DNA of 64,000 bases from Acidobacteriota bacterium. GTDB taxonomy: Bacteria; Acidobacteriota; UBA6911; RPQK01; JAJDTT01. Below, piece after piece: positions 12,257 through 30,804 of this stretch. How positions within the stretch are numbered: position 1 is the first letter of the stretch; the number at the start of each line of letters is the position of its first letter. Below the pieces are notes generated by a model, which searched no databases, had not been told where the DNA came from, and saw only the letters and a program-made list of their open reading frames with translations. A program made the translations under genes and the position numbers. The DNA is taken from NCBI GenBank assembly GCA_965217775.1, contig CBDCJH010000002.1, forward strand, positions 1,792,001-1,856,000, read 5' to 3'.

Positions 12257-12283
12257 CAGTTCGCCCGCCGATTTCGCCGCCCC

Positions 12284-14453: not shown

Positions 14454-14510
14454 TTTCCGTCTTGGGAGGGGCGACCATGGGGGACTTCCAATCTTCCGGA
14501 ACCGGAGCGG

Positions 14511-14615
14511 AAAAAGGGGACAGTCTCGTTTCCAGCAGCAGCGTTCGCCGGTTGCCCAACGCCCCCCGAAGGGGACAGTCGAAGTGAAAAAGGGGACAGT
14601 CTTTTTTCCGGGACG
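14511..14615 (-). repeat. Three copies of the RAYT-associated motif (AAGGGGACAGTC on +)
   Basis: Copies at 14511-14525, 14568-14580, 14587-14601. Confidence 0.85.
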
Positions 14616-14648
14616 CTTCCGCTTGACCCATTCAGGAGGACAGAGACC

Positions 14649-15809
14649 ATGAAAATCACCGACGTCAAGGCTTACGTGGTCAAGCCCAGGTATCCGGACA
14701 AAGCCGGAACCTTCGAGGGGGACTGGACCTTCGTCCGCATCGACACCAACGAAGGCATCCATGGCTGGGGCGAGGCCAGCAACTCTCCTGGCGGCGGCTG
14801 CTTCCTGAGCGCCCGGACCATCGAGCTGCTGCGCCAAAGCCTCGTGGGGCAGGACCCTTTTGAGAGCGAGAGGTTGTGGCAGCAGAACTACCGGCGCTTC
14901 ACCTACCTGGGGGCGCAGGGCCTGCCGACCGTGGCCCTGAGCGGTGTGGACATCGCCCTGTGGGATATCAAGGGGAAGGCCCTGGGCCGCCCGGTCTACG
15001 ACCTGCTGGGCGGCAAGCTGCGCGACAGCATCCGGCTCTACGCCAACGGCTGGTTCTTCGGCTGCCACACCCCCGGGCAGTATGGCGCGGCCGCCAAAGC
15101 CACCGTCGAGGCCGGCCATCAAGCCCTCAAGCTGGATCCCTTCCTGGAGATGCTGCCCTTCCACACCGGCTATCTCTCCGGCCAGATTTCAGCCGAAGGG
15201 GAGGACCTGGGCTGCGCCATCGTGCAGGCGGTTCGGGAAGCCGTGGGAGACAAAGTGGAAATACTGATCGACGCCCACGGCCACTACAACGTGCCGACGG
15301 CCATCCGCCTGGCCAACCGCCTCTACGAGGAGTCGCAGATCGCCTGGTTCGAGGAGCCGGTGCCTCCCGAAAGCATCGATGCCCTGCGGGCAGTCCGAGA
15401 GCAGGTCGCGCCTTCCATTTGCGTGGGCGAACGCCTCTTCACCCGTTTCGACTTCCTGCCCATCCTGCAGCAGGGGCTGGCCGACTATCTGATGCCCGAC
15501 GTGCTCTGGACGGGAGGCATCACCGAGCTGCGCAAGATCTCCAGCCTGGCCGAAGCCTACTACGTCCCCATGAGCCCCCACAACGCCATGGGGCCGCTGC
15601 AGATCGTGGCCGGCTCCCACGTGATGATGAACACGCCCAACTTCTACCGGCTGGAACACAGCACCTCCTTCATCGAAGCCTACAACCGCCTGACGACCGA
15701 GCCCATGAACTTCCACGGCGGGGAGTTCAGCCTGAGCGGAAAACCCGGCCTGGGCGTGGATTTCGACATGGACGCCCTCCACTCCCATCTGCACCCGGAT
15801 TCGGCTTAA
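14649..15809 (+). CDS. Mandelate racemase/enolase superfamily, galactonate dehydratase-like
   Basis: SGVDIALWDIKGKALGRPVYDLLGG, YANGW, KLDP, DAHG, WFEEP, GER, PHN; AGGAGG RBS. Confidence 0.9.
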   Translation: MKITDVKAYVVKPRYPDKAGTFEGDWTFVRIDTNEGIHGWGEASNSPGGGCFLSARTIELLRQSLVGQDPFESERLWQQNYRRFTYLGAQGLPTVALSGVDIALWDIKGKALGRPVYDLLGGKLRDSIRLYANGWFFGCHTPGQYGAAAKATVEAGHQALKLDPFLEMLPFHTGYLSGQISAEGEDLGCAIVQAVREAVGDKVEILIDAHGHYNVPTAIRLANRLYEESQIAWFEEPVPPESIDALRAVREQVAPSICVGERLFTRFDFLPILQQGLADYLMPDVLWTGGITELRKISSLAEAYYVPMSPHNAMGPLQIVAGSHVMMNTPNFYRLEHSTSFIEAYNRLTTEPMNFHGGEFSLSGKPGLGVDFDMDALHSHLHPDSA

Positions 15810-15835
15810 CCCGCATTTCTCAGCGGGGGGCGTGA
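15807..15835. mobile_element. MITE family A, isolated inverted right end (truncated)
   Basis: TAACCCGCATTTCTCAGCGGGGGGCGTGA matches the reverse complement of the MITE right end. Confidence 0.7.
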
Positions 15836-15840
15836 TGATG

Positions 15841-15891
15841 ACGGGGGAAAAAAGGGACGGGAAAAAGGGGACAGTCTATTTTTCCGGGACG
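15841..15891 (-). repeat. RAYT left-flank motif with stutter
   Basis: GAAAAAGGGGACAGTCTATTTTTCCGGGACG, a direct repeat of 14586-14615, preceded by partial copy GGAAAAAAGGGAC. Confidence 0.85.
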
Positions 15892-16111
15892 GAAGACACA
15901 GGGCAGACCACAAAGGTGTCGGCTCCTTCGCCTGCAAAGACAACTGAGGTGGTCACTTGGTCAAGTTTCCTCGGATGCTTCCGGAAACGCGAGATTTGCT
16001 GATTTTCTTGAGTTTCCTTCGCCTTTCTTAGTTCTGAATCGTTGTGGTCATCAGAGGTGCGAACCTATCCGCGCCGCGCCGAGTCCGAGTCGTTAACCGA
16101 GGACCGTGGCC

Positions 16112-17047
16112 ATGGCCCGAACCGCACGACACAAAAGCACAGAAGCCGCCTTCTATCACCTCACCAATCGAGTCGCCGGCAATTCCGATTGGTTCCCCTT
16201 TAAAAACCACCAAGCCGGTCGCAAACTCCTGGACATGATGTCGTTCTACGTCAATGTCTACCGGTGTCGTTTGGCCGCTTTCCAGATCATGGGCAATCAC
16301 TTCCACTTCGTCATCCATTTTGAGAAACCCCGCCCCCTGTCCCGCGACGAGTTGATGGACAGCGCCCACAAGCTTTATGGACAACAGGCAGAGAAGAAAA
16401 CCGCCGATTGGACCGTCGCCCAGTGGGAGGCTTTCAACCAGCGTCTCTTTGACGTGTCGAAACTGATGGCGAACGTGGACGGGTTCTATGCCCGGTGGTT
16501 CAACCGCAATTTCGGACGACGAGGCCATCTTTGGGGTGATCGTTTCAAGAACCCGGAACTCTTGGGAAGCGAAGCCGTCCAGGACGCCATCCTCTACGTG
16601 GAACTCAATGCCGTCCGGGCCGGACTGGTCAAAAGGCCCGAGCAATGGCAGTGGGGCTCGGCCCGCTGGAGACTCACCGGCGAGGATCAAGATCTGATTC
16701 CACTGGAGGAACTGTTCCCCTCGGATCCCGGAGCGGACGTGTACAGAAGTTACCGGGCTCGCTTGTACTATCGAGGAGCCGTCCCCACCCGGGAGAACCA
16801 GGCTGCGATCCCCCGGTGGATCCTCCTTCAGGAGCAGCGACGTGGATTTACCCGTGCCGGAGCCTTTCTCCGGCGTTTGCGATTTCTGACGGACGGGTTG
16901 GCCGTCGGTCCGGCAGAGAAGGTGGCGCAGTTGCTGGAGACGTATCGAAAGCAAGGTCGATATCGGCGTCGCCGACACCCCATCCCCCAACTGGGCGGAG
17001 TGCTGTTTTCCCTGCGGGAGCAGCGCTCCCACGCCTTCGTCTCGTAG
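16112..17047 (+). CDS. REP-associated tyrosine transposase (HUH/Y1 family)
   Basis: FYHLTNR, HUH motif MGNHFHF, GHLWGDRF, YVELNAVRAGLV..PEQWQWGS. Confidence 0.88.
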   Translation: MARTARHKSTEAAFYHLTNRVAGNSDWFPFKNHQAGRKLLDMMSFYVNVYRCRLAAFQIMGNHFHFVIHFEKPRPLSRDELMDSAHKLYGQQAEKKTADWTVAQWEAFNQRLFDVSKLMANVDGFYARWFNRNFGRRGHLWGDRFKNPELLGSEAVQDAILYVELNAVRAGLVKRPEQWQWGSARWRLTGEDQDLIPLEELFPSDPGADVYRSYRARLYYRGAVPTRENQAAIPRWILLQEQRRGFTRAGAFLRRLRFLTDGLAVGPAEKVAQLLETYRKQGRYRRRRHPIPQLGGVLFSLREQRSHAFVS

Positions 17048-17220
17048 ACTCGCCTGATCGCCGACCGTCGATTCTGCCACTCCGGCACCGAACGACCCAG
17101 ATCACGGGAACCACCCAATAGACTGAATTGTCCTCTTAGTGTGTGGAAAGTCCTCCGGACTTCCATCCATTTGCCATGGGTTCACTGCTCTGCTTCCGCA
17201 GTCTCTCGCAGTCTCTTCTC

Positions 17221-17290
17221 AAGACTGTCCCTTTCTGTCTCGACGGCTACCAGACGGCTACCAGACGGCTACCACAAGGGTCGCCCCGAC
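17221..17290 (+). repeat. RAYT right-flank motif plus (GACGGCTACCA)x3 and REP half
   Basis: AAGACTGTCCCTTTCT at 17221; 11-mer at 17242, 17253, 17264; then CAAGGGTCGCCCCGAC. Confidence 0.85.
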
Positions 17291-17302
17291 GAACGGTGTC
17301 CC

Positions 17303-18061
17303 CTAGTCGTCCCGGAAACGATCGGCCGTGTCCTGCGGTTCGTATCCCAGGTCCCTCCGGGCGTTGTCCAGTGACCGGTAGTTCCACTTGTTGTCGGAGA
17401 CCACGTAGTAGATCCCGAACTTCAGATCCTCAGGCGCATCGATGCAGCGGCGGATCATCTGGGCGATGTCCGCGTGACTGCACCAGACCGAGAAATCCCG
17501 AACCTCGTTGGGCCGGTCGTTGTAGTGGACGCGGCCGATGCGGAGAGAGATCATGGACAGGCCCCATCGGTCGGAGAAGAACCGGGCCAACGTTTCGCCG
17601 AACGCCTTGCTGCAACCGTAGAGGCCGTTGGGCCGAATCAGCGACGTGTCCACCAAGTCCCAACCGGTCACCTCCTCGTACCGTCCCTCGACCAGGGCAG
17701 CGTAGGGCGGATGCCGTTCCCACTCGCTGACGGCGGCTCCGCTGCTGGCGAAAACAACCCTCTCGACACCCGCCGTCCGGGCCGCCTCGAACACGTTGTA
17801 GGTGCCGACGATGTTGTGCGGGAGCACGTCCTCCCAGGTGGGGTCCCCCTGGGCCATGGCGGCCAGGTGGACGACGGTCTCCACTCCCTCGAAGGCCGGC
17901 CGGATGGCCTCCAGATCGGCAATGTCCGCCTGCAGGCACGGGAGGCCCTCCACCGGACGCCGGTTCAAGGCGCTCAGCTCGTACGCATCTCCCAGTTCCC
18001 GCCGGCAAACCTGCCCGATGAGTCCGCTCATGCCCGTGATCAACACTCTTTTTTTGGCCAT
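17303..18061 (-). CDS. NAD-dependent epimerase/dehydrogenase (uronate dehydrogenase-like)
   Basis: ITGMSGLIG, VVHLAA, YGCSK, SLRIG. Confidence 0.88.
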   Translation of the reverse strand: MAKKRVLITGMSGLIGQVCRRELGDAYELSALNRRPVEGLPCLQADIADLEAIRPAFEGVETVVHLAAMAQGDPTWEDVLPHNIVGTYNVFEAARTAGVERVVFASSGAAVSEWERHPPYAALVEGRYEEVTGWDLVDTSLIRPNGLYGCSKAFGETLARFFSDRWGLSMISLRIGRVHYNDRPNEVRDFSVWCSHADIAQMIRRCIDAPEDLKFGIYYVVSDNKWNYRSLDNARRDLGYEPQDTADRFRDD

Positions 18062-18199
18062 GCGGCGATTCTACCGCAGGGCCTCCCAACTCCGCCTGCC
18101 GGGTTTTACCGCCGGTTTTCATTCCCACTTCCAGCCCCTATGATGGGCTCTCGTCTCAACACCCAATTGAATCGGCATCCGGCGAAAGGGAGCGGCAAC

Positions 18200-18934
18200 A
18201 TGTTTCGAAACAAAATCCTCGAGAGAATCAAGAGAGGCGAGAAGGCTCTGGGCCTGTTCATGTCGGACCCTTCCGAAGAACTGGTGGAAATGGCCGGGCG
18301 CATGGGGCTGGATTTCGTCGGCTTCGACGGCCAGCACTCGCCCCTCACTCCGGAACGGGTCGGCACCCTGTGCACCATCGCGGACGGGTTCGACGTCACT
18401 CCCACCATGCGCGTCCCCGATGGGAATGAAAGCACGCTACTGTCCTATTTGGACCGTGGGATCCGCGGCATCACGGTTCCCAACATCCAGACCCGTGAAG
18501 AAGCCGAAAAACTGGTCAAATACACCTATTTCGCACCGCTGGGCCTGCGCAGCTCCACCAGCTACCGCATGGTCATGAACCAGGACGGAAAGGACCGCAA
18601 CACCCTCTTCCAGGAAGTCAACGCCAACCTGATGATCGTCCCCCAACTGGAGAGCGTGACTTCAATCCGGAATTTGGACGAGATCCTTCAGGTGGAGGGG
18701 ATCGACTACCTCGGAGGCGGCCCCGAAGACATGGCCCAGTCCATGGGGATTCCGGGCCGGCATGACGATCCCAGGGTGACCCGGATCTACAAGGAGATGG
18801 AACAGAAGGTCCATGCCGCCGGAAAGCTCATGGCGGGAGACTACATCGAGTCGGTGAACGTCTTCTGGAACGTCAAGGGCGCATTGGAGCAACTGCTTGA
18901 AAGCCACGGCCGCCGCTCTCGCATGACCTGGTAG
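18200..18934 (+). CDS. HpcH/HpaI aldolase family
   Basis: DFVGFDGQH, MRVP, FAPLGLRS, QLES, GPEDMAQSMG. Confidence 0.85.
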   Translation: MFRNKILERIKRGEKALGLFMSDPSEELVEMAGRMGLDFVGFDGQHSPLTPERVGTLCTIADGFDVTPTMRVPDGNESTLLSYLDRGIRGITVPNIQTREEAEKLVKYTYFAPLGLRSSTSYRMVMNQDGKDRNTLFQEVNANLMIVPQLESVTSIRNLDEILQVEGIDYLGGGPEDMAQSMGIPGRHDDPRVTRIYKEMEQKVHAAGKLMAGDYIESVNVFWNVKGALEQLLESHGRRSRMTW

Positions 18935-18950
18935 TGAAGACCCCCACCCC

Positions 18951-19904
18951 GTGAAGTACGTCGTCAATCTGCCCATCGCCGGCCCTCTGGCGACTCCCCG
19001 CAGTCTCTCGGCTCTCGCTCGAACCGCCGAGGCCCAGGGAGTCGACATCATCTCCTCCAGTGAGCGCCTGGTCCTGCCCTGCTCCGTCGAGACCCGCTAT
19101 CCGTACGGCGCCACGGGCAAGTTTCCCGGCGGAAGCGGCAGCCAGAAGAGCCTGGAGATGCTGATGACCCTGGCCTTCCTCTGCGGCCAGACCTCCCGGG
19201 TCCGCATCCTGACCTCGGTCCTGGTCCTGCCCTACCGGGATCCGATCCTGGCGGCCAAGATGCTGGCCACCCTGGACGTCCTCTCCGAAGGCCGGCTCAT
19301 CGTGGGCTGCGGCGTCGGCTGGATGCGGGAGGAGTTCGAAGCCCTGGGCCTGCCGGTCCGATTCGAGGACCGGGGCCGCGCCTCGGACGAGTACCTGAGG
19401 GGCATGCAGGAACTCTGGTGTAGCGAGAACCCTGAGTTCAAAGGCAACCACGTCCGTTTCTCCGGGATCGAATTCCATCCCCAGCCGGTACAGCGGCCTC
19501 ATCCGCCTTTCTGGTTCGGCGGCGAGAGCCCCGCGGCCCTCCGGCGCGTCGCCCGCTTCGGAGACGGATGGATGCCCATCGCCGGAAACCCGCGCCATCC
19601 GCTGGACGACGACCGGCAACTCGCCCGGGCGATTGAAAGACTGCGCCGAATGGTGGAGGCCGAAGGCCGGGACCCGGACAAGATTCACGTCCGGTTCGGC
19701 GGAGGGTGGAACGAGTCCCCGCGCCCGGGCCCGGCAGGAGAGAGACTGCCCATGAGCGGCACGGTCCAGCAGGTGGCCGGAGACATCCGCCGCTATCAGG
19801 ATCTGGGAGTCGACCACCTGGGAGTGGGTCTGTTGACGGAGGACCTGTCCGAGAGCCTGGAACGGATCGAGCGCTTCATGACCAGTGTCGTGCCGGTGGT
19901 CTAG
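18951..19904 (+). CDS. LLM-class (probably F420-dependent) oxidoreductase
   Basis: TSVLVLPYRDPILAAKMLATLDVLSEGRL, GVGWMREEF, PVQRPHPP, GDGWMP. Confidence 0.9.
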   Translation: MKYVVNLPIAGPLATPRSLSALARTAEAQGVDIISSSERLVLPCSVETRYPYGATGKFPGGSGSQKSLEMLMTLAFLCGQTSRVRILTSVLVLPYRDPILAAKMLATLDVLSEGRLIVGCGVGWMREEFEALGLPVRFEDRGRASDEYLRGMQELWCSENPEFKGNHVRFSGIEFHPQPVQRPHPPFWFGGESPAALRRVARFGDGWMPIAGNPRHPLDDDRQLARAIERLRRMVEAEGRDPDKIHVRFGGGWNESPRPGPAGERLPMSGTVQQVAGDIRRYQDLGVDHLGVGLLTEDLSESLERIERFMTSVVPVV

Positions 19905-19917
19905 GAACTTGCGCGAT

Positions 19918-21150
19918 TCACACTCTCAGGAAGATCCTCCGCCGATACATCCACCAGCAGACCAGCCAGAACGTGAGCCCCACCATCACCGACTCGAGGG
20001 CGGGCTCATTGGCGGCTCCCCAGAGCTGGGAGATGTTCTGCCCCAGGTGTGTCCGCAAGGTTGCTGCGGTCCAGTCGGGTAGAAGCATGCTCATCGAGTA
20101 GATCGCTATGGAGTTGGTTCCCACCACCACCAGAGGGAAGGTCCAGCGACGGATCCTGGCGATGTCAATCAGGACGTAGAGTCCTCCCAGGATCAGGCAG
20201 CACCAGCCCGTCGAAAAGATTGCCCAGGAGGGTGTCCAGATCCGCTTGACAAGTGGACAGACACCCGTCCAATCGAGGATCAGCCCTACGGTCAGACCGA
20301 GAATCCCCGCTGCCAGAAGTGTTCTGAGCTTGGTTCTGGCCGAGCGGTGCGAGCGCAGGAACCCGCCCACCATCAGGCCGAAAAGCATGGTGGCCAGGGA
20401 GGGAATAAAATTGATGGTCTGATACCCTCCTCCGTTGTGGACGAACGGCTCCTGGCGTGGCAACTGGTTCAGCAACCAGCCGTCAACGGCATGACCGACG
20501 TTGGCGTTCTTATGCCAGGCTGGAGACACTTCCGCCAGATGTCGCTGAGCCCACTCCGGTTGAACACCCACCTCAGGCGAGCCGCTCGGAAGCTCGACAC
20601 CGGCTCCGGGATACAGGACGTACAACATCCAGGTCAGGATCAGGACGAACACTGCCCCAAGGGCCTGACTTCGAATTCTTCGACGCCAGAACAAAAAGAG
20701 GAAGGTGTAGCCCAGCCCGATCTGCGTCAGGACATTCATCAGTGACCAATTGGTGCCGGAGAGCGAATCGGAAATCAGGAAGATGCCCAGAAGGATGAGG
20801 ACGGCGGATCTCCCGAGGGCGTGGCGCAGCATCTTGCCGTACGAGTGCCCCAGTCCCGATCGTTTGGCATAGGAGTAGGCCATCGACACTCCCACCATGA
20901 ACATGAAGGAGGGTTGGATCAGATCCCAGTAGCCACATCCGGTCCAGGGGACGTGGGAAAACTGGTAATGAACCGTCTGCCAGAAGGAAGAGTCCGGGTT
21001 GGTTGCCAGATGATTCTCGGCCGTCTCCCTGAGACCGAAACCCTTGAAGGCGAGGGAGACCATGATCAGTCCACGATAGGCGTCAAGAGACAGCAACCTC
21101 TGTTGCTGCCGGTTGCTTTTCGCGACCTCGGATTCACCGTGGGATCCCAC
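19918..21150 (-). CDS. HGSNAT-like multi-TM acyltransferase
   Basis: RLLSLDAYRGL, WDLIQPSFMFMVGVSM, PLVKRIWTPSW, VVGTNSIAIY. Confidence 0.85.
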   Translation of the reverse strand: MGSHGESEVAKSNRQQQRLLSLDAYRGLIMVSLAFKGFGLRETAENHLATNPDSSFWQTVHYQFSHVPWTGCGYWDLIQPSFMFMVGVSMAYSYAKRSGLGHSYGKMLRHALGRSAVLILLGIFLISDSLSGTNWSLMNVLTQIGLGYTFLFLFWRRRIRSQALGAVFVLILTWMLYVLYPGAGVELPSGSPEVGVQPEWAQRHLAEVSPAWHKNANVGHAVDGWLLNQLPRQEPFVHNGGGYQTINFIPSLATMLFGLMVGGFLRSHRSARTKLRTLLAAGILGLTVGLILDWTGVCPLVKRIWTPSWAIFSTGWCCLILGGLYVLIDIARIRRWTFPLVVVGTNSIAIYSMSMLLPDWTAATLRTHLGQNISQLWGAANEPALESVMVGLTFWLVCWWMYRRRIFLRV

Positions 21151-21914: not shown

Positions 21915-24290
21915 ATGATCAGTCCTCTACTTAGCTCATTCTCGAGTTCGTTTTTTGCTGGGTGGCTGTTTTTCGTTCTGTCACCGACGCAAACTGGCGG
22001 CCCCCCGTCAGAGAACGTCCGCCGACAGGCGGACGACTCGATTGTCCGACAGGAGCAGGAAGAGAAGGTTCTATACTTCCCGGATTATGTGGATGGCGGG
22101 GGCTGGTCGGTGCAACTAGTGCTCAGCAACGTCGACCCGAACGCCGCCGCCGAGATCCGGGTGGAAGTCTACGACCCGGACGGACAAAACCTTCGGGATC
22201 TATTCGATTCCGATTTGACGTTGGAGATTCCGGCGCTGGGCACTCGAGTCTTGAGAAGCGCCGGTTCAGGAGCCATTCGGCGGGGTTGGATCCGGATCGA
22301 GACCGATGCCGGCACCGTCAGTGGATTGTTGACCTACCGGCACGCCCAATCAGGGATCGAAGTCGTCGTCGAGCCCGCCCAATTGGGGAAGGAGTTCGCT
22401 CTGTTCGTGGAGGAATCAGAGACCGTCGGGGCGGGACTGGCCCTCTTCAAACCGGATGCGGAATCCAGGATCGAGGTGAGACTGCGCGACGAGGAGGGGA
22501 ACGATCCGTTGAACGGATTGTTCGTCCCCTGGGGGGATTTCCACCAGGCGGCGCGCACGCTCCCGGAATGGTTCGCCGTTGAAGGAATTGATATGGGATT
22601 TCTGGAGGACTTCCACGGCTTCCTGTTCCTACGAAGTGAGGACGGCACCCCCTTCGCTCCGCTCGGGCTGCGGTTCGGGAAGCGGACCTCTTCACTCTCG
22701 GCGGTGCCGGCGATTCGGGTCCCGGACGGAGGCGGGAACGACGGTGGCCATCCACCCCCGCCGACATCGATCGATCAGGGTCAGAGCACGACGTTGACGT
22801 GGCCGTCGACGAGTGCGGCGAGTGCGGAGATCACCCCGGACATCGGCGTGGTGCCCACTTCGGGTTCGCGGAAGGTGTCGCCGGACGTCACCCCGCCCTG
22901 CCACATCAACGTAACAGGGGCCGACGGACAGACCGCCATGGCGTCGGTCACGGTGACCGCCCTGACGGAATGTGATCGGGTCGGCGTCCCGGTCGAGCCG
23001 GTATCCGGAGAGCCGGCGGCCGCGATCCGCATTGTGGCAGGCGAGGGGCAACGCGCGTTCACCGAGCGCACCCTCGACAAGCCCCTTGTAGTTCGCGTTC
23101 TCGACACGTCAGATCTGCCTGTTTCCGGGGTGGCCGTGAACTTCGTACCAACGCCGGAAAGCGGTCGGGTGGATCCCTCGACCGCAGCCACGGATTCGAA
23201 CGGCGAGGTCGCGGTGGAGTGGACCATGGGCTCCGCGGCCGGTATCCAGACGCTCATAGTCGCCGCAGGCCTGGCTATTACGGGTGTCAACGTCTACGCG
23301 ATCGACCTCGAGTCCGAACTCGACAACGTTTTTGCCGCGCCGACCGCCGCGGAGATCGAGGCCGTTCGTGCAGACTGGGCCGCGCGTGACATCTCTGCGG
23401 TTGACGTGTTCGTTGAATTCACGGAGACGTATCCCCTGGGCGAAACCCCGGCGACCCTGCGCGTGGTGTCGCATCAGGTCGGGGAGGTGCGCCACTACGG
23501 GGCGATCCTTGCGCCCGACTCTGCGGCACCCGGGACGCTGCCCGTCCTGATGTACCTGCACGGCGGCGACAGCGGTGTCGACGTGGGCGACATCGATATC
23601 GTCGGGTATTCCTTGGGCGAGCTGCGAGACAGCTTCGTCTACGTAATCCCGTCTTTTCGCAGCGAACGGCTTGAATATGGCGATAGCGTGTGGGTCTCGA
23701 CCGGATCTGGCGGTCACTGGGACTACGATGTGGACGACGCCCTGGCGCTCTTGAACGTGGCTCTGGAGCTGACTCCGCAGGCGAAGTCCGAAGGTGTGAG
23801 CATCGTCGGCGGAAGTCGTGGAGCGGGCGTCGCCATGCTGGCCGGCATCCGCGACGAGCGCATCGAGAACATCGTCGCCTTCTTCGGTCCCACCGACTTC
23901 TTCGACGACTGGGTGCGGCAAATCGTGCGCGAGGCGGTCCTGGGGCGTCCGCGCCAGCTCACGGGCGTGGCCCACATGGACTCCACTTTCGTTCAGCCCT
24001 ACATGAGAGGCGAGATCGAACTGGCTGAGTTGCGCCTGGAGTTGGTGCGCCGCTCCTCCGTCCTGTTCGCCGAAGACCTGCCGGGCGTCCAGCTGCACCA
24101 TGGCGATTCCGACGAGACCGTCGCCGTCAGCCAAGCGTACTCGATGATCCGTACCATGGAGGCCTTGGGACGCGAGCCTCCCGAGTTCGAGGCCTTCATC
24201 TACGAGGGTGGAGGACACGAGGTGTTCGGTCTAAGGGGTGCCATTCCGCGGGCGGTGCGGTTCCTGTGGCGTGCCCTGGGAAGGGAATAA
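21915..24290 (+). CDS. Secreted mosaic protein: N-terminal beta domain, Ig-like domains, alpha/beta hydrolase (S9-like)
   Basis: Signal-like N-terminus; Big-like PLVVRV..ATDSNGEV; YLHGG, GGSRG nucleophile elbow, HHGDSDETV, GGGH. Confidence 0.75.
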   Translation: MISPLLSSFSSSFFAGWLFFVLSPTQTGGPPSENVRRQADDSIVRQEQEEKVLYFPDYVDGGGWSVQLVLSNVDPNAAAEIRVEVYDPDGQNLRDLFDSDLTLEIPALGTRVLRSAGSGAIRRGWIRIETDAGTVSGLLTYRHAQSGIEVVVEPAQLGKEFALFVEESETVGAGLALFKPDAESRIEVRLRDEEGNDPLNGLFVPWGDFHQAARTLPEWFAVEGIDMGFLEDFHGFLFLRSEDGTPFAPLGLRFGKRTSSLSAVPAIRVPDGGGNDGGHPPPPTSIDQGQSTTLTWPSTSAASAEITPDIGVVPTSGSRKVSPDVTPPCHINVTGADGQTAMASVTVTALTECDRVGVPVEPVSGEPAAAIRIVAGEGQRAFTERTLDKPLVVRVLDTSDLPVSGVAVNFVPTPESGRVDPSTAATDSNGEVAVEWTMGSAAGIQTLIVAAGLAITGVNVYAIDLESELDNVFAAPTAAEIEAVRADWAARDISAVDVFVEFTETYPLGETPATLRVVSHQVGEVRHYGAILAPDSAAPGTLPVLMYLHGGDSGVDVGDIDIVGYSLGELRDSFVYVIPSFRSERLEYGDSVWVSTGSGGHWDYDVDDALALLNVALELTPQAKSEGVSIVGGSRGAGVAMLAGIRDERIENIVAFFGPTDFFDDWVRQIVREAVLGRPRQLTGVAHMDSTFVQPYMRGEIELAELRLELVRRSSVLFAEDLPGVQLHHGDSDETVAVSQAYSMIRTMEALGREPPEFEAFIYEGGGHEVFGLRGAIPRAVRFLWRALGRE

Positions 24291-24356
24291 AGTAGCTTAT
24301 GGGGCTGACCTTTTGCCGGAGTTGGAGGAATCTTTCGGAGAGGGAGGTGACGTCAC

Positions 24357-24683
24357 GTGAAAACACGCCGCAAGTTCCCCGCCGGTACAGTCCTCGTCAC
24401 GGCGATCCTGGGGGCAGTTTCTCTCAGCCCATCCAGAATGGCGCACGCGGGACCCGAGGAGTACGAGCGCGTCTATTGGGACAAGGGAGACGCGAGGAAG
24501 GTCATCGCCCGCGCGACAGCAATCGACATGGGGAACACCAGTGAGATGCTCCTTCGCATCACTGCAGCCGCATTCAATACCGAACCGAACAGAGACGAGA
24601 CCACTTCTGGCGTCTGGCTCACAGACGACGTCTGCTGGTCACTGGCTATTCTTGTGCAAGAGGAATTAACGACGGACCGATGA
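24357..24683 (+). pseudogene. Secreted hypothetical protein, probably frameshifted
   Basis: GGAGG RBS and signal peptide; protein-like reading (DEEKEKFYESF) continues in another frame after the stop. Confidence 0.4.
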
Positions 24684-25812
24684 GGAGAAGGAGAAATTTT
24701 ACGAGTCCTTCGTGGAAACGGGTGCATGCCGTGAAGCCCGACACCCCGCCCGAGCACCGGGATTGGTATCCGCAGGGGACAGACTCACCGACAACCGAAA
24801 CGGAACAAATGAAGCGACCTTATGATGCCTAAAAAGAATCTTCGAGGTGACCGCTGGGATACGGATTCGATGATTTGGAACGCCATTCGTATACGGGTCG
24901 TTGCCCGAGCTGTTGTGGTCTCATCGGGATTCCCATACCTACTGGACGCACCTCCACGAAAAGCGTTGGGGCGTGTTTCGAACCAGTGAACTCAGTCAGG
25001 CCTTAACGGTGATACTCAACGCCTACAGTAAGCGGTGGGGCGATTCCGCCTATAGCGCGGACACTTATGGGTGAGTCGCCTGCCGAGAGACAAGCCTGCG
25101 CTGCCCCGTCGCTGAAGAGGATTCTGCGTCGCCTCCTCTGTGGTGGAGCCTTTTCCTCCGCTGGATCGCAGTAACGTACTTTATCGACATTAATTCGAGG
25201 CCCCCGCCGCAGACCAATCCGGGCCGCCCACCCTCCACGCGGGGACTCCGCAAATCCGGCCGGCCCCGTAGAGGGCCTCTGCCGCGTCGGCTCCAGGCGC
25301 GCCCGCGCCCGGCCGGGCCGGATTTGGCCGGAACGGGGGATTTTCGGAAGATCCGGAGAAGAAAACGCGCTCAGAGGGCCTGTGCCGGCCTGGCGAGCCC
25401 GGACCAACGGTTAGGTGATAGGCCCTGGAGCTACACCCAGGCTCCGCCAGCGTCTCGCGGCGGAGGGGGAATTTTGCAGAACGGGCGCGCGGGTATTTTG
25501 TGGTCCGAGAGATCTGGACCTCGAGCGGTCTGAGAAACGCGATCCTGCTTCCGGAACTCGGCCGGGGATTCGTTTGTTTCCAGGGGGTTGCGGAAGCGTA
25601 CATCGTTCGCTCGAATGAATAATCCCCGCTCTCTGACTTGATACACAGGCCTCCGGCGGTCCGCGGCGGCCGGGGGGAGCTCCACCGGGTCAATTTGGAC
25701 GTCTCCGAGACCCTGCAGGGCCGACTTGAGGCGTGGAGTCCGCCCGATTTTGGCGAAAATCGGCCTACAGGACCTCGCTGACGACAGAACCTGACTCCGC
25801 CGGCGTTGGATC

Positions 25813-26151
25813 ATGTCTGAAACGATGCGAAAACGCCGGAAGCTCAACACCAGAGCCGGCCGGCTGGCGGCCCGCGAGCGAGTCCGTCAACTGGTGAGTG
25901 AGCACGATGACCAGATGGTGCTCCTGGTCTGGGGTGGCCGAGTGCTCGGCTGGTCGCTCCGCCGGATCGCAGCGGCCCTGGAGGGGTCAGTAGCTCCCCC
26001 CGGCCGCCGGGCGGGGTACGCGGCCGGGAAGTGGACGGCAGCCGCTGTCCAGCGGATTTGCCGCCGCCACGGCATTCCCACGGACCGGCCCGCCGAGCCG
26101 CCCCGTGCGTTCCTCGCGGACGTGAGGGGTTCTGAAGCGCGGGATTACTGA
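25813..26151 (+). CDS. Small protein resembling the serine-recombinase 'recombinase' DNA-binding domain
   Basis: GWSLRRIAAAL...GKWTAAAVQRI pattern. Confidence 0.55.
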   Translation: MSETMRKRRKLNTRAGRLAARERVRQLVSEHDDQMVLLVWGGRVLGWSLRRIAAALEGSVAPPGRRAGYAAGKWTAAAVQRICRRHGIPTDRPAEPPRAFLADVRGSEARDY

Positions 26152-26251
26152 ATCAGCGGAATGTTTGACTCCAAGGTGAAACTCCGGCCCGAGATCAGCA
26201 TCTAAGGGGAGGTCGATCACCCACGCATCCGGACCCGCGAGGAGGACCACC

Positions 26252-26590
26252 ATGGCGAGACCCACCGATGAGATCATGAACGGGCAAAGAGTGGTCCACG
26301 TCGAGAACGAGGACGAATTCTTCTACTACTCCGATCGGGGTCCGATAACACTTTCCCGCGAGCTGGCGGAATCCCTGGGCTTCAGGGAATACCCCGGCTC
26401 CGCGGAAGAACTGCACGCCGAGGAGTGGGAAGAGACATTGAACGGCGAGCGGGAGTGGGAGGAGTTGCAGAAAGAATGGGCCGAAGAGGAGCGGCGGGCC
26501 GAACACCCGACGGACCCCTCCAGCCCCTTCTATGAAAGAGATGACCGCCCCCTGGCTGTGGTGATCCCGTTCCCAACCAGGGTCCAATAA
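26252..26590 (+). CDS. Acidic hypothetical protein
   Basis: GAGGAGG RBS before ATG; Glu-rich. Confidence 0.6.
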   Translation: MARPTDEIMNGQRVVHVENEDEFFYYSDRGPITLSRELAESLGFREYPGSAEELHAEEWEETLNGEREWEELQKEWAEEERRAEHPTDPSSPFYERDDRPLAVVIPFPTRVQ

Positions 26591-26606
26591 AATCAACTTA
26601 TTCTGA

Positions 26607-26663
26607 GAAAAGGTGACTGTCCCCTTCTCGGTCCTCGTCCCCTTCTCGGTCCTCGATCCCCTC
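26607..26663 (+). repeat. RAYT-type motif with 18-bp tandem duplication
   Basis: GAAAAGGTGACT then GTCCCCTTCTCGGTCCTC at 26619 and 26637. Confidence 0.85.
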
Positions 26664-26747
26664 ATTTTTCCCAACCCGGTGAGCCCCTTCCGACGAGAAA
26701 TTCACATCTTCTGATGTGGAGCCGCTAATGAGGAGCGGAGTCACTCC

Positions 26748-27287
26748 ATGGCAGTAGGAGGCACCATGATGATTATTCTGACGATGAAATCGAGCCGGAC
26801 TCAGATCCTCGCCTTGTTCCTGGTGGGACTGACCTTCCAGCCGGCGCACGCGGAGGTGATCCCGGGACGCTGGGAGAAGGTCTCCGCCTTGGAAATGGCA
26901 TCAACCGTCACGGTGGAACTGAAAAACGGGGATCGAATTAAGGGCCAGTTCCGAGGCTTGGTGCCATCAGCTCTGGAACTCCGGAGCCCCGCTGGCCGGG
27001 CAGTGATTCCAAAATCGGACATCCAGATGATTGCCACTCTGGCGAAGGATGGTCTGGGCAACGGAGCCGGGATTGGAGCCGCGGTCGGGGCCGGCCTTGG
27101 ACTCGGGGCCTTCGTCCTCGCTGCTCGTACTCGAGGTGGTTTGGATTCGGCACCGGGGACTTTGTTGACCATTGGCGGAATCGGAGCAGGCATAGGGGCC
27201 GCAATAGGCGCGGCTGCCGATGCCGCCACGAAGGGCGAGACCATCGTACTCTACAAAGCCCCTGGAAGTTCTCAGCGTTCCAAATGA
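26748..27287 (+). CDS. Glycine-zipper membrane/secreted hypothetical protein
   Basis: Signal peptide ending AHA, GAGIGAAVGAG and GAGIGAAIGAA; start uncertain. Confidence 0.65.
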   Translation: MAVGGTMMIILTMKSSRTQILALFLVGLTFQPAHAEVIPGRWEKVSALEMASTVTVELKNGDRIKGQFRGLVPSALELRSPAGRAVIPKSDIQMIATLAKDGLGNGAGIGAAVGAGLGLGAFVLAARTRGGLDSAPGTLLTIGGIGAGIGAAIGAAADAATKGETIVLYKAPGSSQRSK

Positions 27288-27432
27288 AGGGGTTCGGAGT
27301 GGTGGCTACCCGATCCGCCGGCAGCCGAGACGCAAACAGCGAACCTTTCAAAATGATGGGGAATTGGCGGTTCTCTTCGGGAACGTCTATGTCCATTAAC
27401 GAAGTTAACGGAAGCACAGGGGTTCGACCCAT

Positions 27433-27558
27433 CAGATGTCGGGGACATCCGCCGCTACCAGGATCTCGAAGTCGACCACCTGGGAGCGGGTCTGTTGACG
27501 GATGACCTGTCCGAGAGTCTGGACCGGATCGAGTGCTTCATGACCACCGTGGCGCCGG
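27433..27558 (+). repeat. Diverged copy 2 of the LLM gene 3' end (att-like)
   Basis: GACATCCGCCGCTAYCAGGATCT...TTCATGACCA aligns with 19770-19904. Confidence 0.85.
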
Positions 27559-27559
27559 G

Positions 27560-27997
27560 GGGGCTCCATTTTTAGAACCGGCATTCGTAGTGAAGGACCC
27601 GGCGTCACTGCCGCGTTCCACTGGGGAGTACGAGATCATCGGGCGAACCGGTGACGGGGACGTGTTGTTCTCGCTTCCATTCCAGATGCCGGAGGTGGCC
27701 GACGGAGATGGGAGATCCTCCTTCGCTTTCGTTCTGCCTGTGCAGCCAGAATGGGCCGATCAGTTGGCCAGCATCACCCTGTCCGGACCCGGTGGCTCGG
27801 TCACGCTGGATCAGGACACCAACCGCCCGGTCACTATCCTGCGAAATCCGCGGACCGGGCAGATTCGTGCCATCCTGCGCGGCGCGGCGGCCGCCCCCGA
27901 AAGCGTGGACGCCACAGTGTCGGCGCTGTCATTGGACCCGGGATTGGAGAGGTTGACCAGCCGCGGAATCCCGGACCCGGAAGGCTGGACACAATAA
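27560..27997 (+). pseudogene. C-terminal fragment of a larger secreted protein
   Basis: Begins abruptly after the LLM copy with no RBS or start; protein-like PFLEPAFVV...SITLSGPGG. Confidence 0.5.
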
Positions 27998-28077
27998 TAG
28001 AGGCGGATCGTTCACCCGGAGAACGAACTCCGTAAATTGACGTCCGTTAACTGCAATTAAAAAGGAAGCAGCGCAGC

Positions 28078-28129
28078 GAAAAGGTGACTGTCCCCTTCGC
28101 ATTCGCATTCGCATTCGCATTCGCATTCG
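28078..28129 (+). repeat. RAYT-type motif followed by (TTCGCA)x5
   Basis: GAAAAGGTGACTGTCCCC then the hexamer array 28096-28125. Confidence 0.88.
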
Positions 28130-28187
28130 GGGTCCCATGGAGAAGGTACTGGCGCTCTGCAAGAAGTACGGCGTGGCCTTCGGAACC

Positions 28188-28661
28188 CTACTTTGTGATC
28201 CCGCCAGATTGCCCCCAGCCGGTCGCTTGGCGCTCCCCCCCTTTGTGGTACTCCACTGATACATTGAACGCAGAACCAAAGACATGGGCGCTCACGTATA
28301 GAACTGGCCCGTCTGTCTTGGCTCGGTCATAAGGATCCGAGTAGAGGCCGACTGGCCGCAAGTGCGTTACCGCCGCCAGCCAGAGGCGATGCTCGGTTAA
28401 ACCAATTTTCCTCGCATCGTTGCTCAAGCGTTTCACCACTACTGCCATGGGACGGCAGGCGTTGTACAGCCTCCTCCGGTCCTGGTCGTTAATATGCTGG
28501 CCTTGATGGGGCCGAGCTGAAATACCGCGAAAACAGCGAGTGCAACGAACCAGGTTGGGAGTCTGACGGGCCGGCGATTGCGGGGACTCATGCGGTGGAA
28601 CCCTACTACACCCTCTCCCGTGGTCGGCATCATTCCATTCGTGACGGTTTACGGATATCAT
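28188..28661 (-). pseudogene. Hypothetical protein, probably truncated
   Basis: Protein-like ORF that ends at a mosaic junction. Confidence 0.35.
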
Positions 28662-28684
28662 AAAGCTAGGTACTCTGGCGGTTC

Positions 28685-28963
28685 ATGATCCGAAGTTTCA
28701 GCGACCGAAACACCCGGCGCTTCTTCGAGGGCCGTCGGGTGGGAGCGTTCCAGGGATTCGCAGATCAGGCCGTGCGCCGTCTCACCCTGTTGGACAACGC
28801 GGAGTCCCTTCGAGACTTGGCCGGGTTGCCCAGCAACCGTCTGGAAGCGCTTCGGGGCAACCGGGCCGGCCAGTTCAGCATCCGGATCAATGCGCAGTGG
28901 CGAATCTGTTTTCGTTGGGGAGAGGATGGACCCTACGAAGTCGAGATCGTGGACTATCACTGA
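28685..28963 (+). CDS. higB: HigB toxin (RelE/ParE family)
   Basis: MIRSF, PSNRLEALRGNRAGQFSIRINAQWRICF, VEIVDYH. Confidence 0.93.
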   Translation: MIRSFSDRNTRRFFEGRRVGAFQGFADQAVRRLTLLDNAESLRDLAGLPSNRLEALRGNRAGQFSIRINAQWRICFRWGEDGPYEVEIVDYH

Positions 28964-28973
28964 GGAGGTCGAG

Positions 28974-29315
28974 GTGACGAGCTTTAAAAATGGGATGCGA
29001 CCGGTGCATCCGGGAGAGATCTTGCGGGACGAGTTGGATGCGCTTGGCTTGTCGGCCAATGCGCTGTCGAAGGCACTGGGCGTGCCCGTGAATCGAATCA
29101 CGGCGATCCTGAATGGGCAGCGGGGTGTGACGGCCAACACGGCATTGCGCCTGGCGCGCTACTTCGGGACGACCCCGCAGGTTTGGCTGAATCTGCAGAA
29201 GACGTGGGAGCTGCGGCGGGAAGAGATCAGCGTTGGGAGCTTGATTGCCGAACGCGTCCAGCCCCGGCAAACGATGACGCCGATTGAAGTGACCAGTGTC
29301 GACACCCGATCCTGA
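28974..29315 (+). CDS. higA: HigA antitoxin (HTH-XRE)
   Basis: MRPVHPGEIL, TALRLARYFGTTPQVWLNLQ; GTG start after GAGG. Confidence 0.93.
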   Translation: MTSFKNGMRPVHPGEILRDELDALGLSANALSKALGVPVNRITAILNGQRGVTANTALRLARYFGTTPQVWLNLQKTWELRREEISVGSLIAERVQPRQTMTPIEVTSVDTRS

Positions 29316-29435
29316 GTAAATGTCCGGTCAACTGTTCACCCAGTATTTTCTCACCGACGTCATAAAGACCACCTTTGAATGGAGAGCGTCACTCGCCCAA
29401 CCGGAGGACTTCCTCCAGTTCCGAGACAGAAGACG

Positions 29436-30095
29436 ATGATAACCACCAATGTCATCCAGCGGACCTTCTTCGTCAAGATCGGTAATATGACAGGCACTGC
29501 GTTCACCATTGACCGCAACGGTAGGCAATACCTCGTGACGGCCCGCCATATTGCTGGTGGCGCAGTGCAAAGCATGGAGGTCTTCCACAATGGCCGGTGG
29601 ACGTCGCTTAGTGTAAACGCCGTAGGCATTGGACGGAACGACGTCGACGTAGCTGTCTTCGCGCCCAATGTCATATTGTCGCCGCCACATCTTCTAGAGG
29701 CGACCTCTGCTGGATTGACCTACGGACAGCCAGTTTCCTTCCTCGGGTTCCCTTTCGATTGGCAAGGAGGCTTGGCCCACATGAACAACGGTTTCCCGTT
29801 TCCGTTCGTGAAGGCTGGAATCGTAAGTGCACCGCCCAGCCACCGGATTTGGACCGACACCCACGGCAACCGAGGGTTCAGCGGCGCCCCGGTGGTATTC
29901 AAATCGCTATCTGGCGCCGGCAACTCGCCATGGAAGGTCGCGGGCATCGTTGTTAAATCAAAGCCCGATCCTCAGACAGGCGGGAACGCTGGATTCGTCA
30001 TTGCTGAACCAATCAAGGCTGCGACAGCCTTGATGGACGAAAGGCCTATCGGAGCTACAATGTTCGGCGGAACTGCCTCCGGCAAGACATCCTGA
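29436..30095 (+). CDS. Trypsin-like serine protease
   Basis: Triad motifs LVTARH, DVAV, GNRGFSGAPV. Confidence 0.8.
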   Translation: MITTNVIQRTFFVKIGNMTGTAFTIDRNGRQYLVTARHIAGGAVQSMEVFHNGRWTSLSVNAVGIGRNDVDVAVFAPNVILSPPHLLEATSAGLTYGQPVSFLGFPFDWQGGLAHMNNGFPFPFVKAGIVSAPPSHRIWTDTHGNRGFSGAPVVFKSLSGAGNSPWKVAGIVVKSKPDPQTGGNAGFVIAEPIKAATALMDERPIGATMFGGTASGKTS

Positions 30096-30126
30096 TTAGA
30101 CCTTGCCGGGCGACGATTCACACAGA

Positions 30127-30157
30127 GAAAAGGTGACTGTCCCCTTCTCACCTTTTC
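30127..30157 (+). repeat. RAYT-type motif with fold-back
   Basis: GAAAAGGTGA-CTGTCCCCTTC-TCACCTTTTC hairpin. Confidence 0.85.
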
Positions 30158-30158
30158 G

Positions 30159-30725
30159 AGAGGGAAGGTCCAGCGACGGATCCTGGCCACGTCAATCAGG
30201 ACGTAGAGTCCTCCCAGGATCAGGCAGCACCAGCCCGTCGAAAAGATTGCCCAGGAGGGTGTCCAGATCCGCTTGACAAGTGGACAGACACCCGTCCAAT
30301 CGAGGATCAGTCCTACGGTCAGACCAAGAATTCCCGCTGCCAGAAGTGTTCTGAGCTTGGTTTGGGCCGAGCGGTGCGAGCGCAGGAACCCGCCCACCAT
30401 CAGGCCGAAAAGCATGGTGGCCAGGGAGGGAATGAAGTTGATGGTCTGATACCCTCCTCCGTTGTGGACGAACGGCTCCTGGCGTGGCAACTGGTTCAGC
30501 AGCCAGCCGTCAACGGCATGACCGACGTTGGCGTTCTTATGCCAGGCTGGAGACACTTCCGCCAGATGTCGCTGAGCCCACTCCGGTTGAACACCCACCT
30601 CAGGCTAGCCGCTCGTAAGCTCGACACCGGTTCCGGGATACAGGACGTACAACATCCACGTCAGGATCAGGACGAACACTGCCCCAAGGGCCTGACTTCG
30701 AATTCTTCGACGCCAGAACAAAAAG
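30159..30725 (-). pseudogene. Internal fragment duplicating the HGSNAT-like gene
   Basis: Near-identical to about 20132-20698; TCG to TAG in-frame stop at about 30605; lacks both ends. Confidence 0.9.
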
Positions 30726-30804
30726 CGCAGAGCAAAGGTGACTGTCCCCTTTTCGCGACCCGCCCGTCACGCAGAGCAAAGGTGACTGTCCCCTTTTCGC
30801 GACC
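30726..30804 (+). repeat. 35-bp direct repeat containing the RAYT-type motif
   Basis: CGCAGAGCAAAGGTGACTGTCCCCTTTTCGCGACC at 30726 and 30770. Confidence 0.9.

Follow-up and report, generated by a model that had tools for sequence, protein, structure and literature searches.

The closest described relatives of the system reported here are the REPtrons, in which the gene for a RAYT or TnpA_REP enzyme, a tyrosine transposase associated with repetitive extragenic palindromes (REPs), is flanked by REPs or by bacterial interspersed mosaic elements (BIMEs), as exemplified by E. coli YafM (PDB 4ER8) in those parts of the literature drawn on here (PMC2817692, PMC3333891, PMC8266576, PMC5581495). RAYT groups are present at 1.3-1.8 copies per replicon, according to the part of the survey used (PMC5581495). 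Another relevant class is subclass 2.3 of the TnpA_Y1 proteins, for which Table 1 of PMC6006769 gives the HuH motif NHYH, the Y motif YVDLNP and a median length of 325 amino acids (aa). The portion of that study used here adds that 55 aa are inserted between beta3 and alphaC, that genomes carry 3.9 copies on average with 74.8% identity and that the subclass occurs mainly in Chromatiales and Alteromonadales, and it reports no REP-like structure next to the genes (PMC6006769). How REPs spread and what role RAYT enzymes have in the cell are still unsettled. The present analysis concerns a 64-kb stretch of an acidobacterial genome (the window, G000:C2:1792001-1856000; the genome, G000, has 6.43 Mb, 62% G+C and two contigs, C1 and C2), which carries a gene for a 313-aa RAYT-like protein of the HUH/Y1 type and an array of a short oriented repeat. 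This system is REPtron-like, although atypical in having no GTAG tag, a weak hairpin and a multi-copy gene, and its repeat borders DNA that has been gained, lost, duplicated and re-ordered between species.

The motif within the repeat has the core form GACTGTCCC(C/T)TT. Allowing at most one mismatch, GACTGTCCCCTT matches the window 11 times, always within 14514-30795, while dinucleotide-preserving shuffles lead to an expectation of 0.49 matches on average and none of 100 shuffles reached 11. These copies and the gene that lies among them are as follows.

14514-14525, 14569-14580, 14590-14601 and 15865-15876, minus strand: motif copies to the left of the Y1 gene (12-mer match).
16106-17047, plus strand: HUH/Y1 transposase homologue, RAYT-like, long form, 313 aa (Pfam Y1_Tnp, AlphaFold 2 (AF2) model, Foldseek).
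17223-17234, 21697, 26615, 28086, 30135, 30740 and 30784, plus strand: motif copies to the right of the Y1 gene (12-mer match).
15865-17234, no single strand: RAYT unit, consisting of motif(-) 15865-15876, a non-coding leader, the Y1 gene, a trailer and motif(+) 17223-17234 (layout common to all 11 paralogues).

The Y1 gene thus sits between motif 15865(-) and motif 17223(+), and the four (-) copies to its left and seven (+) copies to its right agree with the initial annotation of this stretch, which had described copies reading one way to the left of the HUH gene and the opposite way to its right. The sites are the same as those listed there, with positions that were 1-14 nt off. What had been taken for a degenerate candidate near 24774 did not hold up: it reads GGGGACAGACTCACC and lies in the interior of a segment found also at G000:C2:~1878700 and in the related genome G006, with no junction. 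The 9-mer core alone has one extra match in the window, at 36310(-), which has neither the YTT tail nor the flanks of the family and is therefore most likely due to chance. Genome-wide there are 149 copies of GACTGTCCC[CT]TT in 6.43 Mb, strongly clustered (the list also includes C2 3343446 and 3349783), so that 11 copies in 16.3 kb represent a strong local cluster.

The association of the repeat with the Y1 gene extends well beyond this locus. A tblastn search of G000 recovers 11 full-length Y1 paralogues (83-100% aa identity) and two fragments. All 11 have GGGACAGTC 120-290 nt upstream of the start, whichever direction the gene takes on the chromosome, and in nine GACTGTCCC follows at +1098 to +1238, counted from the start of the gene (~160-300 nt beyond the stop codon); the remaining two carry a further (-) copy downstream, followed in one of them by a (+) copy at +1257. 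Conservation among the units spans the interval from the left repeat to the right repeat. At 50 related loci, drawn from other Acidobacteriota metagenome-assembled genomes with proteins 79-91% identical, arrays within 600 bp of the Y1 gene read 43(-)/2(+) upstream and 40(+)/4(-) downstream. The mapping of the motif genome-wide and in relatives, which the initial annotation had suggested, thus finds the copies close to RAYT homologues to be orientation-biased. The taxonomic distribution of repeat and gene is given below.

This genus, nine of nine genomes: 28-149 repeat copies per genome; 4-12 Y1 matches in each genome with at least 73% identity, except for a single one in G008, whose assembly is fragmented; the seven better-assembled genomes have 4-11 matches.
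Sister genus, four genomes: 0-3 repeat copies; 1-3 Y1 homologues at 45-55% identity.
Rest of the order, eight genomes: 0-10 repeat copies; 0-2 Y1 homologues at 38-58% identity, with none matched in four of the eight.

A reversed control pattern occurs in 0-4 copies per genome across these 21 genomes, where the outgroup comprises 12 genomes and one outgroup entry, G014, is an unpublished genome that bears on no other result. Y1 gene copies at 73% identity or more are confined to the genus among the 21. The repeat and the multi-copy Y1 clade are therefore co-distributed and restricted to the genus, and the Y1 enzyme probably recognizes the repeat that flanks its gene. Several units depart from the common layout. 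One paralogue with an in-frame TAG (G000:C2:1201935-1202870) lies in a 9.5-kb stretch (C2 1201623-1211401) that contains three clustered units, two of them with an extra (-) repeat copy inside the trailer. Inverted repeat pairs with the spacing of a Y1 unit enclose other open reading frames (one of 237 aa) at G000:C2:4741163-4742624 and 4256144-4257534, where just short leader and trailer remnants are left of the unit; at both sites other cargo has apparently taken the place of the Y1 gene.

The 313-aa protein has the fold of a HUH/Y1 single-strand DNA transposase. It matches Pfam Y1_Tnp with 27.2 bits (cutoff 23), and a sequence search of the PDB returned no match at E values up to 1. The AF2 model, built with 43 homologues, has a mean confidence (pLDDT, predicted local distance difference test) of 90.7, and its top Foldseek match is 4er8_A, E. 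coli TnpA_REP bound to a REP hairpin (E 1.5e-6), followed by the TnpA proteins of IS608, IS200 and ISDra2. Of the 43 homologues, 38 retain H65 and 37 retain H67, the HUH histidines, and 40 retain the tyrosine Y164. The sequence motifs are NH[Y/F]H (Y in 21 and F in 17 of the 43) and YV[E/D]LN[P/A], and the 'W' motif reads WG. Inserted helices at 80-136 and an extra helical domain formed by the C-terminal ~120 residues are features of the model. Among the paralogues the median ratio of nonsynonymous to synonymous divergence (dN/dS) is 0.35 over 55 pairs.

DNA identity between Y1 copies is 86-95%, with a smallest pairwise dS of 0.0135, and this divergence is unlike that of a currently bursting insertion sequence (IS). 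At seven of the 11 loci, both flanks are syntenic with loci that carry Y1 in one to six other species. A tree of 53 Y1 sequences (11 own and 42 related, leaving out L001, L010, L016, L032, L036, L037, L042 and L048 as short, partial or with indels) nevertheless groups the copies by genome rather than by locus. Syntenic loci combined with grouping by genome suggest that the copies undergo gene conversion or are repeatedly replaced at landing sites that stay fixed.

When all copies are aligned, the repeat has the consensus GAGAAGGtGACtGTCcCCTTCTC, an imperfect palindrome of ~23 nt that is only partly palindromic. Its core is invariant, while the purine-rich 5' arm and the pyrimidine-rich 3' arm vary widely among copies. 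Neither the GTAG nor the CGTC tag of classical REPs is present in the consensus, which agrees with the earlier statement that the motif is no GTAG hairpin. The hairpin is weak, with a mean DNA folding energy of -3.8 kcal/mol. Mirrored positions of the arms pair no more often than in column shuffles, and a comparison of own with swapped arms gives 71 better and 86 worse of 158 (p=0.56); no conserved stem is therefore claimed for the repeat. By crude gene calls, copies occur in all kinds of intergenic context, with 18(+)/17(-) where the neighbors are forward tandem genes and 8(+)/10(-) where they are reverse tandem genes. This independence of neighboring gene direction rules out a promoter- or terminator-type role. 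Two other families share the 9-mer core. A 12-copy family reading GGGGGACAAGACTGTCCCCCCTCC (G000 C2, e.g. 179036, 825764, 1445675, 2132807) has it within a different palindrome, and a separate family of ~200-226 copies genome-wide (e.g. C2:1057726, 1252821, 3843185), whose 12-mers CGGCATTCGACC and GTGGCAAAAGTC top the k-mer table, happens to hold it in a few copies.

Comparison with eight genomes of the same genus (G001-G008, ~88-96% identity over backbone blocks) divides the window into a conserved backbone (10003-14460, 17303-21250/21635 and 31620 onward) and two hot spots that break it.

14453-17302, no single strand: variable region 1, an insert between the stop codons of two convergent backbone genes (comparison of species).
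14514-14601, minus strand: left edge of variable region 1, with three motif copies (exact 12-mers and sequence context).
14649-15809, plus strand: enolase-superfamily (MR_MLE) accessory gene among motif copies (Pfam MR_MLE_C, 197 bits).
17303-21635, no single strand: backbone block between the hot spots, with epimerase-like, HpcH-like, luciferase-like and acyltransferase-like genes (collinear, 91-96% identity in G001-G008; Pfam).
21636-31610, no single strand: variable region 2, a ~10-kb accessory patchwork with motif(+) at 21697, 26615, 28086, 30135, 30740 and 30784 (species comparison).

The array in the window consists of two neighboring hot spots, of which only the part at 14514-17234 is firmly RAYT-centred. 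The view of a single RAYT-centred array therefore stands for that part, while the copies at 21697-30795 fill a separate hot spot 4.4 kb away. Variable region 1 is absent from G008, where the two stop codons overlap (CTAG) with zero insert, and G004 has there solely an unrelated palindromic insert of 134 bp. Repeat copies and a Y1 unit, in one orientation or the other, occupy this site in the other species, among them G003, G002, G006 and G001. The enolase-superfamily gene is present at variable region 1 in G000, G007 and G005 only, on the opposite side of the Y1 unit in G005, and G001 has a 186-bp remnant of it. The contents of variable region 2 differ as follows.

G000: ~10 kb, six (+) copies.
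G001: 184 bp, no repeat.
G002: 776 bp, three (+) copies, without the G000 cargo.
G003: eight (+) copies and the peptidase gene.
G004: 3.1 kb of other DNA, no repeat.
G005: 1254 bp, five (+) copies, without the G000 cargo.
G006: 923 bp, one (+) copy, without the G000 cargo.
G007: 224 bp, two (+) copies, without the G000 cargo.

The comparison for gain or loss of segments at the motif, proposed at the outset for strains and made here between species, thus finds hot spots that are empty in some species and differently filled in others, and it bears out the claim that copies fall where the sequence switches source. Variable region 1 has further peculiarities. The 134-bp insert of G004 (L056 5697-5830) has terminal inverted repeats cccgcatttctca... 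and a duplicated CTAG, and the terminal word cccgcatttctca recurs at window ~15880-15900, immediately upstream of the Y1 unit. Two further families of small palindromes occur in the same hot spots, GGGGCACCC...GGGTGCCC (17 copies, some with GTAG before them) and GGGCGACC...GGTCGCC (21 copies); sites of the two are at window 14465-14490 and 17270-17295 and at L058 5440-5520. In G006, a second copy of ~100 bp from the 3' end of the convergent backbone gene stands beyond variable region 1 and adjoins a repeat copy (L058 5560-5690), and G005 has a duplication of window 13575-14459 with repeat arrays after each copy.

Several segments at the repeat in and beside variable region 2 have counterparts at other places.

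20132-20698, plus strand: source of a captured fragment, an internal piece of the backbone acyltransferase-like gene (sequence comparison).
21287-21638, minus strand: 3'-end fragment of an IS abutting motif 21697; the same piece follows motif copies at L066 15579 and C1 25345-25703.
21915-24290, plus strand: peptidase S9/Big_1 gene module (Pfam and comparison with relatives).
23763-24807, plus strand: segment with a 97.7% copy at G000:C2:1877709-1878752, which starts 11 nt past a motif copy.
30159-30725, plus strand: captured gene fragment, a 97.5% copy of window 20132-20698, that exactly fills the interval from motif 30135 to motif 30740.

The source at 20132-20698 has no motif at its ends, where the stretches AGAGGGAAGGT and AGGAAGGTG resemble the 5' arm of the motif; two captured segments start with AGAGGGAAGG and AGAAGGG, which are likewise similar to that arm. 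The IS fragment corresponds to the 3' end of an element, at least 1.5 kb long, that G006 carries in at least 17 near-identical copies (L078-L082). The peptidase module adjoins the backbone at this site in G003 as well and has other genomic locations in G006, G002 and G007, the last with two copies; a motif stands ~70-140 bp from one end in four of the five places outside G000, and none is found at G007 contig 18. In a self-comparison of the genome, duplications of low copy number (200 bp or longer, 85% identity or higher, depth no greater than 3) have 776 distinct ends, of which 45 are within 40 bp of the repeat. This is 28.8 times the uniform expectation, while four other repeat families show 5-8-fold enrichment. 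Approximately 30 duplication pairs involve no Y1 unit, and their putative source is mostly without a repeat. No fixed cleavage offset and no common source-site word was found at the junctions of 18 pairs.

A second array, at C2 2110349-2122562, has no Y1 gene and the same one-way character, with nine (+) copies in G000 and 33(+)/0(-) in seven relatives. Its set and order of segments vary among species: G006 has the order [6234-7711][2118-2358][8810-9609][7300-7877][3368-4722] in G000 coordinates, and G004 has backbone, S1/S5, S4. The ends of the blocks are from a few to ~50 nt from a repeat, mostly less than 20, and several blocks are 5'-truncated genes. A tyrosine-recombinase fragment within this array (C2:2115579-2115773, L066 8579-8771; profile positions 102-166) ends 17 bp before a repeat and is a further truncated gene at a joint. 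Metagenomic contigs (Logan; four runs from three studies, four small-share runs being left aside) reveal further forms of the locus, and because these are mixed communities they establish that a form exists and give no frequency. The joint 21632-21639 to 30121-30126, a form without the 8.5-kb cargo, is present in all four runs; 15810 to 17308, a form without the Y1 unit, in three; 14453 to 15859, a form without the segment of the enolase gene, in two; and 15884 to 17075, a short derivative without the Y1 gene, in all four. Joints with sides shorter than 30 nt (17304 back to 14587, 15884 to 21952) were left unused as possible repeats or other organisms, and low contig depth over 24869-31378 was not counted as evidence.

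The polarity of the repeat can also be followed on a larger scale. With tight tandem copies collapsed, G000 has 129 units in 55 islands, and 51 of 74 adjacent unit pairs share orientation. There are 17 switches from (-) to (+), of which nine enclose a Y1 gene and two more enclose leader remnants, and six from (+) to (-). At 600-6000 bp from the Y1 gene the relatives have 0(+)/8(-) copies upstream and 10(+)/4(-) downstream, at orthologous loci that are not independent. Beyond 600 bp from the Y1 genes of G000 the counts are 16(-)/8(+) upstream and 8(+)/2(-) downstream, from loci that overlap and with far-right copies from this window only; long-range RAYT-centred polarity in G000 alone was set aside as weak. 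Cumulative GC skew places the origin at ~4.98 Mb and the terminus at ~1.68 Mb, ~120-180 kb from the window. The reading strand of the repeat favors the lagging strand by ~2:1 (units 11/20 versus 43/21, p=0.004), a bias that is not significant when counted by islands (p=0.12).

A REPtron-like unit whose repeat serves as a recombination joint, with the Y1 enzyme acting in trans as the likeliest catalyst, is the explanation preferred here, and its chances are judged to be about even. In its favor are the fold and conserved catalytic residues of the protein, the inverted repeats around all 11 paralogues, the shared distribution of repeat and gene, the one-way arrays, and the variable or duplicated DNA that ends at the repeat. 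The window would then hold one of eleven REPtron-like units, with a 313-aa RAYT-type gene bracketed by inverted and presumably cognate repeats. The repeat, scattered across the intergenic hot spots of the genus, would work as a joint: DNA between two same-strand copies could be lost, duplicated, moved or re-ordered, and unrelated DNA ends could be joined beside a copy, leaving arrays of one orientation with genes or pieces of genes between the copies. Single-stranded DNA would be the substrate of the Y1 enzyme, which would cut at the repeat in trans and be linked to the DNA by a 5'-phosphotyrosine bond at Tyr164. Resolution of this link by the 3'-OH of another cleaved same-strand repeat would produce deletion, a circle, re-insertion or re-ordering with orientation kept, and resolution by an unrelated end would instead lead to the capture of arbitrary fragments. 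Capture of this kind is plausible because E. coli TnpA_REP, in the part of the study drawn on here, ligates cleaved REP DNA to an attacking oligonucleotide of which the 3' base alone is constrained (PMC8266576). On this view the Y1 enzyme, and not host recombination, would make the joints, and the chemistry at the repeat would be single-stranded. A complete exchange of modules by single-strand HUH/Y1 chemistry, in which DNA between co-oriented repeats is excised as a single-stranded circle and re-inserted at another copy while free 3' ends are ligated to cleaved repeats, is offered tentatively and is unlikely in our estimation.

Several observations weigh against the Y1 enzyme as the maker of the joints. 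The weak hairpin (-3.8 kcal/mol) contrasts with the known Y1 transposases, which read hairpins, and the protein scores 50.2 bits against the NCBIfam RAYT model REP_Tyr_transpos NF047646, under the cutoff of 80. The distance from junction to core ranges from 0 to 29 nt, although a constant offset is expected of a site-specific HUH reaction. At deletion end points such as 21639/30126 there is ~25 nt of direct homology, which could also serve host recombination or replication slippage. Most arrays have no Y1 gene nearby (e.g. C2 2112557-2122562, 1523858-1527331 and C1 122734-128482), and action in trans must therefore be assumed. The Y1 unit is inverted relative to the backbone in G002, G003 and G005, which same-strand exchange does not explain. 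As regards a single RAYT-centred array, the (+) polarity of variable region 2 is common to species that differ at variable region 1, and because the window lies in the replichore with a (+) majority, part of the right-hand polarity may stem from this bias and not from the Y1 gene. The initial proposal of a capture or shuffling system is thus sustained insofar as the motif borders DNA that is gained, lost, duplicated and re-ordered, and is weakened by the junction distances and by the lack of a transposase gene in most arrays.

Several of these points are expected if the repeat is passive, that is, if it lies in recombination-prone spacers, the Y1 enzyme at most spreads it, and the turnover is due to host processes such as RecA-dependent unequal exchange between repeats of 23-40 bp, slippage, template switching and island turnover. 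This explanation is a serious one, although on the whole somewhat improbable. It accounts for the direct homology at deletion end points, the variable junction offsets and the arrays without a Y1 gene, and unequal exchange among direct repeats would likewise keep polarity. Insertions are harmless between convergent genes, which is the setting of variable region 1, other repeat families are also 5-8-fold enriched for duplication ends, and the presence of REPs at the join points of duplications is an old observation in enterobacteria. Against this, the enrichment here is ~4 times that of the other families tested, and many copied segments have sources without a repeat at either end, which exchange between repeats cannot yield. 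Repeats of 23 nt are near or below the usual length for efficient RecA exchange, and 33 of 33 copies of the second array have one polarity in seven relatives despite full turnover of content.

The remaining explanations assign the repeat to a different enzyme or the unit to a different class of element. That the Y1 units are an ordinary multi-copy IS of the IS200/IS605 type, with the dispersed motifs as solo ends or decayed copies and the variation coincidental, is very unlikely, although it would fit the 11-12 copies per genome, the grouping of copies by genome instead of locus, the absence of the unit from the orthologous site in G004 and G008, and the short gene-less derivatives in contigs (15884 to 17075, four of four runs). 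The ends of the unit are inverted, while those of IS200/IS605 are on one strand; copies with 86-95% DNA identity and a smallest dS of 0.0135 differ from the near-identical copies of an active IS; at seven of 11 loci the synteny with Y1 loci from other species extends to both sides; and ~130 of ~150 motif copies adjoin no Y1 remnant, with co-oriented arrays spaced by whole genes. The least probable explanation, with a very remote chance of being correct, takes the repeat as the core site of a double-strand recombinase (tyrosine or serine, as in integrons or dif modules) and the Y1 gene as a mere, if frequent, passenger. The consensus can be read as inverted arms of ~8 nt (GAGAAGG-T / GAGAAGG-G) around an invariant asymmetric GACTGTC, a build that is usual for a recombinase core and would give polarity. 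Also consistent with it are the Phage_integrase fragment in the second array and the opposite orientation that the Y1 unit has within its inverted sites in G002, G003 and G005. However, among 24 PF00589 matches in the genome no intact one is within 5 kb of an array, the wide variation of the arms would not be tolerable for a sequence-specific dimer, the repeat shares its narrow taxonomic range with the multi-copy Y1 clade, and repeats are present at every Y1 copy. An integron or dif-module reading as such was ruled out because no intact tyrosine recombinase is near the arrays.

The preferred reading, a REPtron-like unit with its repeat as recombination joint, can be placed against the known systems. 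A non-exhaustive literature search, which did not cover supplements and was not aimed at the exact motif, found no papers on RAYT-linked repeats that border shuffled gene modules. REPtrons are resembled in the HUH/Y1 fold with 4er8 as best structural match, in the bracketing of the gene by an inverted short repeat that is itself dispersed ~150 times in intergenic DNA, and in part in the vertical persistence of the loci. The differences are the missing GTAG/CGTC tag, the weak hairpin and the lack of arm covariation, a protein about twice as long with an extra C-terminal helical domain, one-way arrays spaced by genes in place of alternating BIME-type doublets, and 11-12 gene copies per genome compared with 1.3-1.8 per replicon in the part of the RAYT survey used (PMC5581495). 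TnpA_Y1 subclass 2.3 (and 2.1), compared by the description in Table 1 of PMC6006769, is approached in the motifs NH[Y/F]H and YV[E/D]LN[P/A], the length of 313 aa, the helices inserted at 80-136 and the 4-12 copies at 83-99% aa identity. Two differences from that description are the 'W' motif, WG here and not WE, and the clear cognate repeat of this acidobacterial clade, none being reported for the subclass in the portion used (PMC6006769). The long multi-copy Y1 class, described there as REP-less, may thus have cognate repeats that were missed as poor hairpins (PMC6006769).

This genus offers dozens of natural junctions at which foreign or duplicated DNA that can be identified adjoins a RAYT-linked repeat, and together with the empty and filled versions of the sites in sister species these make the strand-transfer hypothesis directly testable. 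Members of IS200/IS605 have a TnpA of ~150 aa, subterminal hairpins both on one strand and near-identical copies, in contrast to the 313 aa, inverted ends and diverged copies of the present units. IS91/ISCR elements and Helitrons are HUH systems tied to the pick-up of neighboring genes or fragments beside a short end signal; their enzymes have two tyrosines or a helicase and they have distinct origin and terminator ends, whereas here a Y1 enzyme lies between inverted copies of one motif and most arrays are enzyme-less.

Integron cassette arrays, including those of sedentary chromosomal integrons and integrase-less attC clusters, are a parallel in layout, as the initial annotation had noted, and the resemblance holds in that modules of gene size are set off by short sites of one orientation and vary among close relatives in both set and order. 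It does not extend to the sites, since attC sites are imperfect palindromes of ~55-140 nt with conserved R and L boxes, and the array has no sites of attC size, only a conserved repeat of ~23 nt without longer shared structure. Nor does it extend to the machinery: there is no IntI or attI, intact tyrosine recombinase genes are absent from the 5 kb around every array, and the linked enzyme is a single-strand HUH nuclease. The modules themselves are often several genes or truncated fragments, and the junction offsets vary. Should the Y1 enzyme indeed make the joints, this would be a second, integron-independent route to modular gene shuffling in bacterial chromosomes. If exchange of whole modules is also correct, a multi-copy RAYT-like enzyme would be the engine of a genus-wide cassette economy, parallel to integrons and based on other chemistry, and the long 'REP-less' relatives of RAYTs would gain a cellular role.

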